Of a stretch of 24,000 bases of DNA, positions 11,930 through 17,590 are shown piece by piece. Below the pieces are notes generated by a model. It ran no database searches, was not told where the DNA came from, and worked only from the letters and a program-made list of their open reading frames with translations. This stretch comes from Actinopolymorpha alba DSM 45243 (GTDB lineage Bacteria; Actinomycetota; Actinomycetes; Propionibacteriales; Actinopolymorphaceae). The stretch covers positions 67,968-91,967 of the forward strand of contig NZ_KB892755.1 in assembly GCF_000373925.1 (NCBI RefSeq), read 5' to 3'. The first letter of the stretch is position 1. The number at the start of each line of letters is the position of its first letter. A program made the position numbers and the translations under genes.

Positions 11930-12601
11930 ATGACCTGGGGAGCTGATCGTGCCGACACCGCTGACCGCACGTTGAGGGTCAACGGCCACGACCGCACGGT
12001 TGCGGTGGCCGACGAAACTGAGCAGTTGCTGTACTTACTAAGGAACGCGCTGGGCCAGCGCGGCCCGAAGTTCGGGTGCGGCGTGGCGCAGTGCGGAGCC
12101 TGCACCGTCCTCGTCGATGGTGAGATCCGGCGGTCCTGCGTAACCCCGCGGCGCACGGTCCCGGAGCGCGCGAGCGTGGAGACCCTCGACGGGCTGGGGA
12201 CCCCCGGGGCGCCGCATCCCTTGCAGCAGGCGTTCATCGATCAGCAGGCGGGCCAGTGCGCGTACTGCGTCAACGGCATGATCACGGGCGCCCTCGGCTG
12301 GTTGCGGCAGCGCAAGGCCGCCGGCGACACGAGTCTGCCAAGCGAGCAGGAGATCGCCGAGTTCCTGTCCGGCGAGGCCGCGGGGTCGAGTGCTCGACGG
12401 GCGCGCCTCGCCGGTGTTCGCGGCGGGGCCCGACAGGCTGCGCGTGGACGAGAGTCCGGCGGCGGATTCGCTGGCCTGGCTGGTCCTCACGCCCGGCGAT
12501 GTCAGCATCCACAGCGGAAAGGTGGAGCTGGGTACCGGCGTACAAACCGCACTGACCACGCTTTTGTTCGGCGCAGGCCCCGGATTTCAGTCCGGGGTTA
12601 G
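11930..12601 (+). CDS. (2Fe-2S)-binding small subunit of an IorA/NicA-type molybdenum hydroxylase; probably C-terminally defective
   Basis: TLRVNGHDRTV...LLYLLRNALGQRGPKFGCGVAQCGACTVLVDGEIRRSCVTP (first cluster), then HPLQQAFIDQQAGQCAYCVNGMI (Cys-x2-Cys). Family-like sequence ends at ...EIAEFLSGE (~12378) without the expected Cys-x-Cys. The frame then runs as Arg/Gly/Ala-rich sequence to a stop at 12599-12601, inside the IS left end. Confidence 0.6.
   Translation: MTWGADRADTADRTLRVNGHDRTVAVADETEQLLYLLRNALGQRGPKFGCGVAQCGACTVLVDGEIRRSCVTPRRTVPERASVETLDGLGTPGAPHPLQQAFIDQQAGQCAYCVNGMITGALGWLRQRKAAGDTSLPSEQEIAEFLSGEAAGSSARRARLAGVRGGARQAARGRESGGGFAGLAGPHARRCQHPQRKGGAGYRRTNRTDHAFVRRRPRISVRG
12390..12556 (+). 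pseudogene. 5' fragment of the molybdopterin-binding large subunit (IorB/NicB-type), cut off by the IS insertion
   Basis: The frame is open from 12282, with GTG at 12390. It reads ...ADSLAWLVLTPGDVSIHSGKVELGTGVQTALT, the conserved N-terminal motif of this subunit family, then diverges into IS sequence. Confidence 0.7.
12578..12597. repeat. IS left-end subterminal hairpin (7-bp stem, 6-nt loop)
   Basis: ccccggatttcagtccgggg. The arms ccccgga and tccgggg are exact reverse complements. It differs by 1 nt from the right-end copy. Confidence 0.85.
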
Positions 12602-12614
12602 CCGGATCCCGCCG

Positions 12615-13034
12615 TCAGGCGGGACGCTCCTGGTTCTCGATGTACTGCTTCAGCACCGAGAGGGGCGCCCCGCCTGCGGAGACTGAGACGGCGAAGTAGG
12701 AGGGTGTCCAGAAGTGTCCGTGCATCCGTGCTCGGTTGCAGCGACCGGTGTAGTCCGCCCGCAGTCTCCGCGCGGTCGCGCCTTTCAAGCTGCGCACGAG
12801 TTCGCTGATCGGCACCTGGGGCGGGTACCGCACGAGGAGGTGCACGTGGTCGGCTTCGCCGTTGAACTCCACCAACTCGGCACCCAGCGCAGTGCAGACC
12901 TGCCGGAGGGTGGTCTCGCAGTCGGTGAGCATGGCGGGGTCGAGCACCCGCCTGCGGTACTTCGTCACGAAGACAAGGTGGGCGTACAACAGGCTCACGC
13001 TGTGGCAGGTGGAGCGGTAGTCGGTGCGCTTCAT
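12615..13034 (-). CDS. tnpA: IS200/IS605 family Y1 (HUH) transposase TnpA
   Basis: 139 aa: LYAHLVFVTKYRRRVL...GEADHVHLLVRYPP (HUH motif)...HFWTPSYFAVSV (catalytic Tyr)...VLKQYIENQ. Confidence 0.93.
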   Translation of the reverse strand: MKRTDYRSTCHSVSLLYAHLVFVTKYRRRVLDPAMLTDCETTLRQVCTALGAELVEFNGEADHVHLLVRYPPQVPISELVRSLKGATARRLRADYTGRCNRARMHGHFWTPSYFAVSVSAGGAPLSVLKQYIENQERPA

Positions 13035-13042
13035 GCGTCGGA

Positions 13043-14323
13043 TTGTCGGTGGTCTTTGGGAGAGTGGACGCAGTGAGCATCCGGCAGCGTCTCTATCCCG
13101 ACCCCGGGCAACTGGCTGGGCTGGTGGAGCACTGCCACCACGCCAGGTTCGTGTTCAACATCGGCCTGGAACAACGCTCGATGTGGCGCAGGTGGAAGCA
13201 CGACCGAGGCACACACCCCGAGTACGGGGACCTGAATGCTGCACGGATCACCACGGCATCGCAGATGCGCGAGTTGGCCCAACTCCGGGGTGAACTGGGC
13301 TGGCTGCGGGCTGGGTCCTCCAGCGTGCAGCAGGCCGCGCTGCGCGACCTGGACCGGGCCTTTCAGAACTTCTACGCCGGTCGGGCGAAGTACCCGCAGT
13401 TCAAGCGCCGTTCGGAGCGTGAAGGCAGTTTCGTGGTGCGCGACCTCACCGTCCGCCGCCTGAACCGGAAGTGGGGCGTGGTCACCGTCCCCAAGGTCGG
13501 GCAGGTGCGGTTCCGCATCTCCTGGATGTGGGCCGACATCGAACGGGCTACCAGCGCGAGGGTCACCCACCGCAACGGACGCTGGCACATCGCGTTCACC
13601 ACACCAGCCGCCGAGAAAATCACCGCCGAGTCGGGTGCTGTGGTCGGGATCGACCGTGGCGTGGCCAACACTTTGGCCACCAGCGAGGGACGCATGATTC
13701 AGGCCCCGTCACTCACCGACCCGGAGAAGACCCGGTTCCTGCGGTTGCAGCAGCGGCTGGCACGGCAGCAGAAGGGCTCCAAGCGCCGGGCGCAGACACT
13801 GGACCGTCTCGCCACCTTGCGGCGCCGGTTGGGCGACCGGCGCACCGATTGGGTGGAGCAGACCACCACCGGACTCGCCCGCACCTACGACCTCATCGCC
13901 GTGGAAGACCTCCGAGTGCAGAACATGGTCAAGCGCCCGGCACCCAAGCCCGACCCCGTGCATCCGGGTGTGTTCCTCCCGAACGGGGCACGGGCGAAAG
14001 CTGCGCTGAACCGAGCGATCCTCGCCAGCGTGTGGGGCCGGTTCCTCACCCGCATTGAGCACAAGATGCCCGAAGGCACAGTCCTCCGGGTTGATCCGAA
14101 GAACACCAGTCGTACGTGCGCCGCCTGCGGGCACACGGCAGCGTCCAACCGCGAGAGCCAAGCGGTGTTCGCCTGCCAAGCCTGCGGACATCAGGCACAC
14201 GCCGACACCAACGCAGCGGTCGTCATCCTCGACCGCGCGCTAGGCACTACGGCCCCGGGACACGGGGTGTCAGGGCGCAGAAGTCCGGCCTTCGCTGGCA
14301 GCGCCAACCAACCGGCTGCGTAG
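13043..14323 (+). CDS. tnpB: TnpB (IS605 OrfB) RNA-guided endonuclease, apparently intact
   Basis: RQRLYPDPGQLAGLVEH...FVFN is a typical N-terminus. RuvC triad candidates: VVGIDRGV (Asp), LIAVEDLRVQNM (Glu), HADTNAAVVI (Asp). Zn ribbon: TSRTCAACGH...FACQACGH. The GTG at 13073 is an alternative start. Confidence 0.9.
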   Translation: MSVVFGRVDAVSIRQRLYPDPGQLAGLVEHCHHARFVFNIGLEQRSMWRRWKHDRGTHPEYGDLNAARITTASQMRELAQLRGELGWLRAGSSSVQQAALRDLDRAFQNFYAGRAKYPQFKRRSEREGSFVVRDLTVRRLNRKWGVVTVPKVGQVRFRISWMWADIERATSARVTHRNGRWHIAFTTPAAEKITAESGAVVGIDRGVANTLATSEGRMIQAPSLTDPEKTRFLRLQQRLARQQKGSKRRAQTLDRLATLRRRLGDRRTDWVEQTTTGLARTYDLIAVEDLRVQNMVKRPAPKPDPVHPGVFLPNGARAKAALNRAILASVWGRFLTRIEHKMPEGTVLRVDPKNTSRTCAACGHTAASNRESQAVFACQACGHQAHADTNAAVVILDRALGTTAPGHGVSGRRSPAFAGSANQPAA

Positions 14324-14384
14324 CAGCCGAGAATCCCCGGACTTCAGTCCGGGGAGGATGTCAAACAGATCGTCCTCGAGGAAC
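14215..14384 (+). ncRNA. Predicted omega-RNA (reRNA) of TnpB: scaffold over the tnpB 3' end and right end, with the guide read from the flanking host sequence
   Basis: This is inference from how the family works, not from a recognised conserved fold. The right-end hairpin is at 14335-14354, the inferred element end is 14364, and the following ~20 nt (acagatcgtcctcgaggaac) would be the guide. The 5' limit is a guess. Confidence 0.3.
14335..14354. repeat. IS right-end subterminal hairpin
   Basis: ccccggacttcagtccgggg, 19/20 identical to the left-end hairpin. Followed by aggatgtcaa. Confidence 0.85.
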
Positions 14385-16459
14385 TCCACCTCACCAACGG
14401 TCGGGTGCGCTACGTGCAGGGTGACACCCGGACGACCCCGGACCAGGGGACGACCGCTGGCAGCAAGACGATCCAGAACGGCGGGCCCGAGCTACGCCGA
14501 GCGGCGGCGACCGCGTTCCAGGCACTGCTCGACCTCGCCGCGGCGTACTTCCGCGTCGGCAAGGATGAGTTGACAGCGAACGACGGCGTCATCTCGGTCA
14601 AGGGAACCCAGCGGAAGGTCAGGTATGAGCGGTTGCTGGCCCAGACCGATGCCGTGCTGGTCGCGGATCCGGACGTGCCGTTGACCGCTCCAGGCGACTA
14701 CCGCGTGGTCGGGCGGTCAGTCGCCCGCGTCGAGCTACCCGAGAAGGTCACCGCCCGCTTCACCTTCGTCCACGATGTCAAGGTTCCTGGCATGCTGCAC
14801 GCCCGGGTCATCCGCCCCGCCGGCCGGAATGCGCGGTTCGGCTCGATCGAGCCCGACTCGCTGGAGCGCGTGAAGGCGATTCCGGGCTTTGTCACTGTCG
14901 TACGCCGGGACAAATTCGTCGGTGTGGTCGCCGAGACCGAGTGGGCGGCCATCCAGGCGGCGAACCCCACGGCCGGCGTCCGGGTCACCTGGCAGGACGG
15001 GCAGCCGCTCGTCCCGCAGGGGACGTTTCCCGAAGCGTTGCGCGATCCCAACCACCATTACCGAACGGTCGAAGAGGTCAGGGTCGGCGACGTCGACCAG
15101 GCGTTCAACGACGCCGGCGTCCAGGTGCGGGCGAGCTACGACACGCCGTTCCACATGCACGCGTCGATGAGTCCGTCGTGCGCGGTCGCCGACGTACGCC
15201 GGGCTCCGGATGCCAAGACCGGTGTCCAGGTGACCGTCTGGTCGGGTACGCAGTCGGTCTTCGCGCTCCGCCGGACGCTGGCCAATCTCCTGACCCTGCC
15301 AGAGGAGTCGGTGCACGTGAGGTACGCGGAGGCCTCGGGCTGCTACGGCCACAACGGCGCCGACGACGTGGCGGCGGACGCGGCGCTGCTGTCGCAGGCG
15401 GTCAGCGCGCCGGTCCGGGTGCAGTGGGCTCGCCAGGACGAGCACGGCTGGGAGCCGCTCGGCCCTGCGATGGCGCACGACCTGCGCGGCGGCATCACCG
15501 GCGGCCAGGTGGTCGCCTGGGAGCACGTCGTGTGTACGCCGACTCACGGCAGCCGGCCCAACGGCAGCCCGGGAACGGTGCTCGCCGGCATCCTCACCGG
15601 CTCGCTCCCCGCGAACCTTCCGACCGCGGCGGGCAACAGCGGCGGCCGGAACGCGCCGGTCACCTACGCGTTCCCCAACAATCGGCTCATCGCCCATCTC
15701 GTCCGCAGCTTCGAGACGACCGGCCCGACCTCGAACGTTCCGGCCGCCCCGCTGCGTTACCGCTTCCTGCGTTCGACCGCTCTCCGGTCGCTGGGTGGGT
15801 TCTCCAATACCTTCGCCAACGAGTCGTTCCTCGACGAACTCGCCGCGGCGGGTGGGGTCGACCCGCTCGAGCTGCGGTTGCGTTCGCTCGACGACCCGCG
15901 GGCGCGCGCCGTGGTCGAGGCGTTGCGCGACGCGTGGGCTTCGCGACCGCGGGGTGGGGACGGCCGAGGTGCCGGTCTCGCGTTCGCCCGCTACGAAACG
16001 GAGTTCACCTACGTCGCGACGTACGTCGAGGTCGCGGTGGACGCGGCCACCGGCGCGATTCGCGTGCCCCGGGTCGTCGTCGCCCATGACTGTGGGCTGG
16101 TCGTCAACCCCGACGGTCTGCGTCACCAGATCGAGGGCAACGTGATCCAGGGGATCAGCCGGACGCTGAAGGAGGAGGTCCGGCTGGATTCCCGGGGAGT
16201 GACGAGCGTGCTGTGGCAGCAGAACCAGTCCAATCCCACGCCGCAGTACTCCGTGCTGAGGTTCAGCGAGGTACCCGCCATCGAGATCACCCTCCTCAAC
16301 CGCCCGGATGAGCCCGCGTGGGGTGCCGGCGAGCCGACCATCGGACCCATCCCCGCCGCGATCGGCAACGCCGTCTTCGCCGCGACCGGCGTTCGGGTCC
16401 GGCAATTACCGATGACACCGGAACGCGTCCTCGCCGCGCTGCGCGATGGCCCGACATAA
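14365..16459 (+). pseudogene. 3' part (~698 codons) of the molybdopterin-binding large subunit (IorB/NicB-type xanthine dehydrogenase family), separated from its 5' end by the IS
   Basis: The frame of listed ORF 14405..16459 is open back to the TAG at 14321-14323. From 14365 it reads QIVLEELHLTNGRVRYVQGDTRTTPDQGTTAGSKTI, continuing the motif broken at 12556. The C-terminus is family-typical: GAGEPTIGPIPAAIGNAVFAATGVRVRQLPMTPERV. Confidence 0.8.
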
Positions 16460-16468
16460 GGAGAGGTC

Positions 16469-17590
16469 TCAGTGATGAATGGGGCCGGCGGTCACTGAAA
16501 GTGGCCGGCCGGTCCCGCCCCAGCGCATCTGGGTGAGTTCGGCCGCGATGGATATCGCGGTTTCTTCGGGAGTACGCGCGCCGATATCGAGACCGATGGG
16601 GGAGTGTAACCGCTGCAATTCCTCCTCGGTCACGCCGATTTCCCGCAGCCGGCGGATCCGGTCGTCATGGGTGCGCCGGCTGCCCAGAGCGCCGACATAA
16701 CCGGCCGGGGTGCGCAGGGCGGCGGTGAGGAGTGGAATATCGAACTTCGGGTCATGAGTGAGCACGCAGATCGCCGTACGTGAATCAACAACGGTCTCCG
16801 CCAGATATCGGTGCGGCCAGTTAACGATGACCTCGTCCGCGTCCGGAAATCGCTGGCGGGTCGCGAAAATCCCGCGGGCGTCGCAGACCGTCACGTGGTA
16901 GCCGAGGAATTTGCCGACCCGGGAAACGGCGGCGGCGAAATCGATGGCGCCGAAGACGAGCATCCGCGGCGGTGGCGCGAATGACCGCACGAACACGGCG
17001 ACCTCGTCCCGGCGGCGTTCGCCTTGCTGGCCGTACGTACATTGGCCTGTCACGCCCTGCGCCAGCAGGCCGCGGGCGTCGGAGTCGACAGCGCGATCGA
17101 GGCCGGAGGACCCAAGTGAGCCAAGGGCCCGATCCGGCCAGATGACGCGTTGCGCGCCGGCCGAATCGGCGCCGACGATCGCGGGGGCGACGGCAATAGC
17201 GGTGGCCAGCGCGACCGGATGGTGAGCCCGGACTGACGCCACCACCTCCGTGAATGCGGGAAACGACTGTCGACTCATCGGTTGGACGAAGACCTGAATT
17301 TCGCCACCACAGGTGAGTCCCGTGGCAAAGGCGTCGTTGTCACTGATGCCGTACGTGTCGAGCATCGGCTGCCCGGTCTTTATCGCCTGCTGGGCGGATT
17401 CATATATCGCACCCTCGACACAACCGCCGGAAACACTTCCGACCACCTCGCCGTCACCAGAAACAGCCATCGTGGCTCCGGGTTGGCGGGGAGCGCTGCC
17501 GGACGTTTTCACCACCGTCGCGAGCGCGAAGGTGTCACCGGTCAAATACCAGGACACAACCTGGTCCAGGACGTCGCGCATCGGCATCAC
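16469..17590 (-). CDS. XdhC/CoxI family molybdenum-cofactor insertion accessory protein
   Basis: 373 aa: FALATVVKTSGSAPRQPGATMAVSGDGEVVGSVSGGCVEGA...GLTCGGEIQVFVQP (XdhC_CoxI N-domain), then a Rossmann-like C-domain: PRMLVFGAIDFAAAV...GYHVTVCDAR...TAICVLTHDPKFDIPLL. Confidence 0.85.
   Translation of the reverse strand: MMPMRDVLDQVVSWYLTGDTFALATVVKTSGSAPRQPGATMAVSGDGEVVGSVSGGCVEGAIYESAQQAIKTGQPMLDTYGISDNDAFATGLTCGGEIQVFVQPMSRQSFPAFTEVVASVRAHHPVALATAIAVAPAIVGADSAGAQRVIWPDRALGSLGSSGLDRAVDSDARGLLAQGVTGQCTYGQQGERRRDEVAVFVRSFAPPPRMLVFGAIDFAAAVSRVGKFLGYHVTVCDARGIFATRQRFPDADEVIVNWPHRYLAETVVDSRTAICVLTHDPKFDIPLLTAALRTPAGYVGALGSRRTHDDRIRRLREIGVTEEELQRLHSPIGLDIGARTPEETAISIAAELTQMRWGGTGRPLSVTAGPIHH

Follow-up and report, generated by a model that had tools for sequence, protein, structure and literature searches.

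An IS605-type insertion sequence with a TGAC target in a molybdoenzyme operon of Actinopolymorpha alba that is broken twice

Within a 24-kb stretch of DNA from Actinopolymorpha alba DSM 45243 (24,000 nucleotides (nt) of contig NZ_KB892755.1; hereafter the window, whose own positions are used throughout), the large-subunit gene of an oxidoreductase operon is interrupted by a segment that encodes a transposase, TnpA, and a TnpB protein. We conclude with high confidence that this segment, 12557-14364, is one complete insertion sequence of the IS200/IS605 family, of the IS605 type, inserted on the + strand 3' of the tetranucleotide TGAC in the gene for the molybdopterin-binding subunit (Table 1). 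An element of this family with these limits had been proposed in the initial annotation of the window, and Pfam profiles, the terminal hairpins, other copies, orthologous host genes and the guide rule of the family now agree on it. The element has a GC content of 66.9%, which matches the 67.4% of the window, and its surroundings are those of an ordinary chromosome, with a two-component system, the oxidoreductase operon, an XdhC-family maturation factor, a TetR regulator and an ABC transporter.

Each end of the element carries a 20-nt hairpin with an 8-bp stem and a TTCA loop, the left one (IPL, 12578-12597) reading CCCCGGATTTCAGTCCGGGG and including one T.G pair, the right one (IPR, 14335-14354) reading CCCCGGACTTCAGTCCGGGG. 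The two hairpins lie in direct orientation and differ by 1 nt, being 95% identical as direct repeats, and no further copy of the motif with up to three mismatches was found in the window (chance expectation 0.01). When the ends were folded as single-stranded DNA, z-scores of -3.5 (left) and -3.6 (right) were obtained. There are no terminal inverted repeats, the termini CACGCTTTTG... and ...GGATGTCAA not being complementary, and no target-site duplication, the flanks ...CTGAC and ACAGATC... having no common repeat. This architecture had been described correctly from the outset, including the TCAA at 14361-14364, of which the final base stands 10 nt 3' of the right hairpin. The second hairpin of the left end (TCCCGCC-GTCA-GGCGGGA) contains the tnpA stop codon in its loop. 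Its position is kept with different stems in two loci (CCCGCG/CGCGGG in L018, CCGCTC/GAGCGG in L024; labels of this form denote relatives' contigs used for comparison), and a comparable second left-end hairpin is mentioned for ISDra2 and IS605 in published IS608 work.

Table 1. Features of the interrupted operon and of the inserted element, in window coordinates.
Feature	Position	Strand	Description
2Fe-2S small-subunit gene, 3'-truncated	11930..12389	+	Pfam Fer2 and Fer2_2; alignment to L001 and L037
Deletion junction	12386..12392		about 152 nt lost relative to orthologues (151-152 bases relative to L001 and L037)
Large-subunit gene, 5' fragment	12390..12556	+	molybdopterin-binding; ends ...GKVELGTGVQTAL-T
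TGAC target, left cleavage tetranucleotide (CL)	12553..12556	+	host sequence, not part of the element; predicted transposon-adjacent motif (TAM) for TnpB
Whole insertion sequence	12557..14364	+ (top strand on + strand)	1,808 nt
Left end	12557..12624	+	21-nt leader; left guide GL = CAGG (12574-12577); hairpin IPL (12578-12597); second hairpin (12607-12624)
tnpA	12615..13034	-	139-amino-acid (aa) Y1/HUH single-strand DNA transposase; Pfam Y1_Tnp (PF01797), E 2e-36, full profile 1-121
tnpB	13073..14323	+	416-aa predicted RNA-guided endonuclease; GTG start at 13073; longer open reading frame from 13043
Predicted omega-RNA (reRNA) scaffold	14210..14364	+	overlaps the tnpB 3' end and the right end; five conserved helices within 14252-14355
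Right-end core	14331..14364	+	right guide GR = GAAT (14331-14334); hairpin IPR (14335-14354); then AGGATGTCAA, ending in the right cleavage site CR = TCAA (14361-14364)
Right flank, predicted guide segment	14365..14380	+	ACAGATCGTCCTCGAG; host sequence; proposed from the known TnpB mechanism (PMC8612924)
Large-subunit gene, 3' fragment	14365..16459	+	MoCoBD_1 and MoCoBD_2; open frame, collinear with orthologues
XdhC/CoxI-family maturation factor	16469..17590	-	Pfam XdhC_CoxI and XdhC_C; intact operon context

The exact limits of the element were read from related copies. A TnpB scan of representative genomes, a set to which A. alba does not belong, gave a protein of Actinopolymorpha rutila (L004) as the nearest TnpB (75% identity), and close TnpB relatives at 75-83% identity were located on contigs from metagenomes and metagenome-assembled genomes. 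Right ends were compared in eight independent insertions (the window, L004, L015, L017, L018, L030, L031 and L034) and left ends in five (the window, L018, L030, L031 and L034); the A. rutila copy and L017 have no recognisable left end and are informative for the right end only. In all eight, the right end consists of GAAT, the hairpin and AGGATGTCAA, with homology ending directly after TCAA and unrelated flanks beyond it, and the base that follows TCAA is, in the order given, a, t, c, a, g, g, t and a. Because homology among the copies stops after TCAA and the next base differs, the right end is fixed at 14364, and therefore the left boundary at 12557. On the left side, TGAC lies 20-22 nt 5' of the hairpin in all five insertions with a preserved left end (21 nt in the window), while the base preceding it varies (C, C, G, A and T, in the order given). 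This identifies the TGAC at 12553-12556 as the target and 12557 as the first base of the element. The related copies occupy unrelated and mostly intergenic sites. The range of 18-21 nt originally given for the distance between the left junction and the left hairpin included the correct value, which can now be narrowed to exactly 21 nt.

The same cleavage sites are specified by the guide rule known from IS608 of Helicobacter pylori. In that element, left cleavage occurs 3' of a TTAC that precedes the left hairpin by 19 nt, and on the right side TCAA follows the hairpin at a distance of 10 nt (PMC3201880); the initial annotation had given both values correctly. Four-nucleotide guides lie 5' of the hairpins, GL AAAG for TTAC and GR GAAT for TCAA, with T-4 pairing with guide base 2 and T-3 with guide base 1 (PMC5934647); a further pair between position -1 and guide base 4 fits both IS608 ends, in our own reading of the published sequences rather than in quoted text. 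In the element studied here GL is CAGG, and in its relatives CAAG or CATG, so that the third guide base, which is unpaired, is the sole variable one among the copies. Under the IS608 rule CA(G/A/T)G specifies T-G-x-C, which TGAC matches, and GR GAAT pairs with CR TCAA. Both GR and CR agree letter for letter with their IS608 counterparts, as does the 10-nt spacing from hairpin to TCAA; the two elements also have in common a Y1/HUH TnpA (the IS608 structure 2a6m being the best match in the PDB), subterminal hairpins in direct orientation, the lack of a target duplication, and a left cleavage site dictated by the four bases that precede the left hairpin. In contrast, IS608 has the target TTAC with GL AAAG, where TGAC and CAGG/CAAG are found here, its cleavage site lies 19 rather than 21 nt from the hairpin, its hairpin sequence differs, and the host of the present element is high in GC. 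Three independent lines agree on the left boundary, namely this pairing rule, the other copies and the orthologues of the host gene.

When 12390-12556 was joined to 14365-16459, an uninterrupted frame of 753 aa resulted. A search of a large protein collection yielded relatives by the thousand, with 76-77% identity for the nearest that are intact, and 50 intact orthologues of 745-800 aa (56-77% identity) were aligned. In their source records the relatives appear as nicotinate dehydrogenase subunit B, CO/xanthine dehydrogenase Mo-binding subunit or IorB; the host gene belongs to the xanthine dehydrogenase/aldehyde oxidase family and encodes a large subunit of the IorB/nicotinate dehydrogenase subunit B-like kind. 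Across the junction the joined host protein reads GKVELGTGVQTALTQIVLEEL, collinear with all 50 aligned orthologues, in which one residue (T or S) precedes Q; the orthologues have TALTQIV here, with SLTQ or AMSQ in occasional cases, and none has an added residue. The DNA across 12556/14365, GCACTGAC followed directly by ACAGATCG, is likewise collinear with the orthologous loci L001 and L037. No base has been gained or lost at the join and the orthologous reading frame is restored, and the uninterrupted allele is predicted to read GCACTGACACAGATCGTC. An insertion inside a molybdoenzyme large-subunit gene, with these two positions rejoined, is what the initial annotation had called for, and the 50 orthologues back it; of the alternative join at 12559 (ALTTQ) mentioned there, it holds that the frame stays open, but no orthologue supports it. 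In the NCBI annotation, the 3' host fragment figures as an ordinary protein of 696 aa (WP_272944082.1, 14369-16459), for which a non-standard start codon, a short way into the right flank, would have to be assumed.

Besides the insertion, the operon carries another lesion. The Fer2_2 profile is matched by the small subunit only at positions 1-60 of 75, and this protein lacks the C-R-C cysteines and its own stop codon, its frame continuing to 12601. The stretch missing relative to the orthologues comprises the small-subunit C-R-C cysteines and stop codon, the overlapping start codon of the large subunit, and its twin-arginine translocation (Tat) signal (LSRRGFLTGxG), which is present in all aligned orthologues and absent here. 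A deletion of about 152 nt thus adds to the insertion, giving the operon two breaks, and the large-subunit gene does not truly begin at 12390, so that the initial annotation has to be corrected on this point. A by-product of the element, by imprecise excision or TnpB cutting, was considered as the source of the deletion and rejected: 167 nt separate it from the left end, the target site has been left unaltered, and members of the family excise precisely.

Both genes of the element appear intact, as had been stated, judging from the catalytic residues present in their predicted products. TnpA aligned to IS608 TnpA (2a6m, E 3e-18) with the HUH motif H-V-H (DHVHLL) and the catalytic tyrosine (LKQYIENQ) conserved. 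TnpB matched the Pfam families OrfB_IS605, Cas12f1-like TNB and HTH_OrfB_IS605 (PF01385, PF07282 and PF12323) and aligned to ISDra2 TnpB (8exa/8h1j, E 1e-19) and related structures; its RuvC D/E/D residues (GIDRGV, AVEDL, HADTNAA) are conserved and both CxxC pairs of its zinc finger are present (CAACGH...CQACGH). The two genes are divergent between the left and the right end, which is the IS605/IS606-type organisation, whereas tnpA and tnpB of IS608 are co-directional. Their start codons are only 38 nt apart (13035-13072), and promoters must therefore overlap or lie in neighbouring coding sequence; since tnpB runs in the direction of the host operon, transcription reading through from the latter could express it along with the RNA discussed below. 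The closest genomic relative, that of A. rutila (L004, 2600-4340), is decayed, with internal deletions in tnpA, no left hairpin found, about 60 extra nt in the tnpB 3' end/RNA region, and two mutated hairpin positions (CCCCAGA...TCCAGGG) that result in C.A mismatches.

The 3' part of the element appears to encode a structured RNA. The last approximately 260 nt of the eight copies were aligned and a consensus fold was derived, whose five helices within 14252-14355 are paired in 94.7% of cells; one of the helices encloses the tnpB stop codon in its loop. Compensatory double changes occur in 7 of 31 pairs, a covariation reached by none of 500 shuffles, with at most two such pairs in slid controls, although the test comprises eight sequences only and takes its structure from the same alignment, which tells against too firm a reading. 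The fold of the 160 nt up to 14364 has a z-score of -4.2. The last approximately 115-155 nt of the element may hence be regarded, on comparative sequence grounds, as a conserved structured RNA, consistent with a TnpB omega-RNA. RNAalifold additionally pairs GACACC (14204-14209, in codons of the RuvC Asp motif ADTNAA) with GGATGTC (14356-14362) beside the right cleavage site, a long-range pairing that might close the omega-RNA; both segments are invariant in all eight copies, giving no covariation either way.

No Rfam family matched at its gathering score. The best match, HgcC (RF00062) at 14216-14371, reached 21.1 bits against a threshold of 50 (E 0.006-0.06), and this sub-threshold score likewise speaks against the omega-RNA assignment. 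The alignment itself, which counts in favour of the assignment, involves mainly the right-end UUCA-tetraloop hairpin and GAGGAuGUCA in the 3' part, with large insertions relative to the model. By the score criterion of Rfam the RNA is not a member of HgcC, and the likeness is confined to the 3' hairpin and tail. A match of CRISPR-DR9 on the hairpin was weaker than that of HgcC, and both were treated as hints only. The UUCA-tetraloop motif is common to HgcC and to the sense-overlapping transcripts (sotRNAs) at the 3' end of IS1341-type tnpB (PMC4615843), which the element resembles in having a GC-rich UUCA-tetraloop hairpin followed by GAGGAnGUCA at the tnpB 3' end.

For ISDra2 TnpB of Deinococcus radiodurans, the RNA derives from the tnpB 3' end and the right end, the guide from the right flank, and the TAM equals the transposon target (PMC8612924). 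By analogy, the guide here would be ACAGATCGTCCTCGAG, a segment unique in the window, and it would match the empty site; the predicted TAM is TGAC, and both this specificity and the expression of the omega-RNA are expected from what is known of the family. The present TnpB is like that of ISDra2 in domain order and in the RuvC D/E/D residues, and unlike it in its predicted TAM (TGAC rather than TTGAT), with low protein identity. TGAC has precedents in ISAba30 of Acinetobacter baumannii and TvTnpB of Thermoplasma volcanium, where it serves as TAM and also borders the left end on its 5' side (PMC10787141; PMC10530073); these are likened to the element by their published TAM, not by sequence, and their hosts differ.

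Taken together, these features suggest the following cycle. As in other members of the family, TnpA would bind both subterminal hairpins on the single-stranded top strand and find the cleavage sites by guide pairing, GL CAGG with CL TGAC and GR GAAT with CR TCAA. The element would be excised as a single-stranded circle in which the right end abuts the left end (...GATGTCAA joined to CACGCTTTTG..., also written ...AGGATGTCAA joined to CACGCTTTTGTTCGG...), leaving the empty site GCACTGACACAGATCG, and the circle would reinsert 3' of another TGAC with neither duplication nor loss of host bases. TnpB with the omega-RNA (the last approximately 150 nt and about 16 nt of right flank) would then cut the resealed empty site, TGAC plus ACAGATCGTCCTCGAG, and recombinational repair of the cut would restore the element.

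While the anatomy of the element, its exact ends and target, its intact catalytic motifs and its conserved RNA structure could be established here, its present-day mobility is something we infer. A recent and possibly still mobile insertion, as suggested in the initial annotation, is plausible: TnpA is full length with HUH motif and tyrosine, TnpB is full length with D/E/D, both ends, guides and cleavage sites are present, and the pairing of guides and cleavage sites is intact. Several observations nevertheless weigh against it. At 12585, in the left hairpin, stands a T peculiar to this copy, against C in its relatives, so that the loop-closing pair becomes T.G, and the third guide base (12576) is G, against A in IS608 and in most relatives; activity might be lowered by either substitution. 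Records show a single copy: the TnpB is identical to WP_020576421.1 of A. alba (NCBI name 'RNA-guided endonuclease InsQ/TnpB family protein'), which is found on a single contig of 94,225 bp that also carries the 3' host-gene fragment. Moreover, tnpA has been lost or truncated, with tnpB and the right end kept, in five of the eight insertions (L004, L015, L018, L031 and L034), and is full length only in the window, L017 and L030. It is accordingly a substantial possibility, short of a probable one, that the element is correctly identified and is a fixed, immobile single-copy relic heading for the tnpA-less state of most of its relatives. We place only a little below even the related reading that the operon was dead before the element arrived, the deletion having come first and the insertion being a neutral hit in a pseudogene without phenotypic meaning. 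The deletion removes two essential 2Fe-2S cysteines together with the large-subunit start codon and Tat signal, and cuts the Fer2_2 match short at position 60; yet the order of events is not readable from one sequence, and the 753-aa frame is free of stops and frameshifts and collinear with its orthologues. As that frame is clean apart from both lesions, neither of them looks old.

Two further alternatives concern the junction itself. The left boundary might lie at 12560 (host ALTTQIV), or the whole element might be shifted by one base to 12558-14365, with empty-site alleles CTGACCCAG or CTGACCACACAG; both joins are in frame, and the 1-nt shift would give ACC CAG, the codon pair of L001 and L037. 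We consider such a shift highly improbable, given that the extra threonine occurs in no orthologue, that the base after TCAA differs among copies and so sets the end at 14364 and the start at 12557, that the left ends of L018, L030, L031 and L034 also start directly after TGAC, and that the guide rule specifies cleavage after TGAC. It would be more surprising still if the element were an intervening sequence of the programmed kind, removed under regulation so as to give back a functional gene. Members of this family excise precisely, and the large-subunit frame would be exactly restored (PMC3201880), but the upstream deletion leaves the operon non-functional even after excision, the relatives lie at unrelated, mostly intergenic sites, and no regulatory feature was found; we regard this idea as having almost no chance of being right.

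We thus retain the identification of a complete IS605-type element with all hallmarks of the IS200/IS605 family that can be judged from sequence, a textbook mobile element that is well delimited, represents no new kind of system and leaves the understanding of its family unchallenged. The TGAC target/TAM, the UUCA-tetraloop hairpin, the biology of TnpB and omega-RNA, and the annotation of the tnpB product as TnpB by NCBI were already known, and the element itself may already bear a name in ISfinder. For the annotation of the locus, the result is one IS605-type element with target TGAC in a molybdoenzyme operon that a deletion has truncated as well. For a small clade of actinobacterial TnpB elements, it defines exact ends, target/TAM and a likely omega-RNA, which could be useful in mining TnpB nucleases for high-GC hosts. 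A more ambitious reading, which we consider rather unlikely, is that this single intact copy is still active in a high-GC actinomycete, with its TnpB and omega-RNA programmed against its own empty site, TGAC plus ACAGATCGTCCTCGAG. If true, the locus would be a natural substrate for TnpB-mediated transposon retention in an actinomycete, and the TnpB a TGAC-TAM nuclease adapted to high-GC hosts. In a weaker variant, the two independent lesions of the operon may reflect selection for loss of the oxidoreductase rather than neutral decay.

Searches for further occurrences of the element and its host gene gave the following. A plasmid megablast with the element returned only short tnpA matches of 80-92% identity. 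An exact-protein look-up of TnpA as read here found no contig on record, its sequence being absent from the protein collection, and the same look-up with the 684-aa host fragment also found no contig on record. When metagenomes were scanned for the left hairpin followed by TTAG, mostly unrelated AT-rich elements having the same hairpin were retrieved; the only related-looking matches, L024, L026 and L028, were not taken as evidence. The 20-nt hairpin and TTAG occur verbatim in seven otherwise unrelated AT-rich metagenome contigs (L019, L020, L022, L023, L025, L027 and L029), twice in L023 (415 nt apart) and in L027 (299 nt apart), and a second GGACTTTAGTCC hairpin often follows. These contigs may carry small non-autonomous derivatives, similar to palindrome-associated transposable elements (PATEs) or miniature inverted-repeat transposable elements (MITEs), or distant IS1341-type ends.

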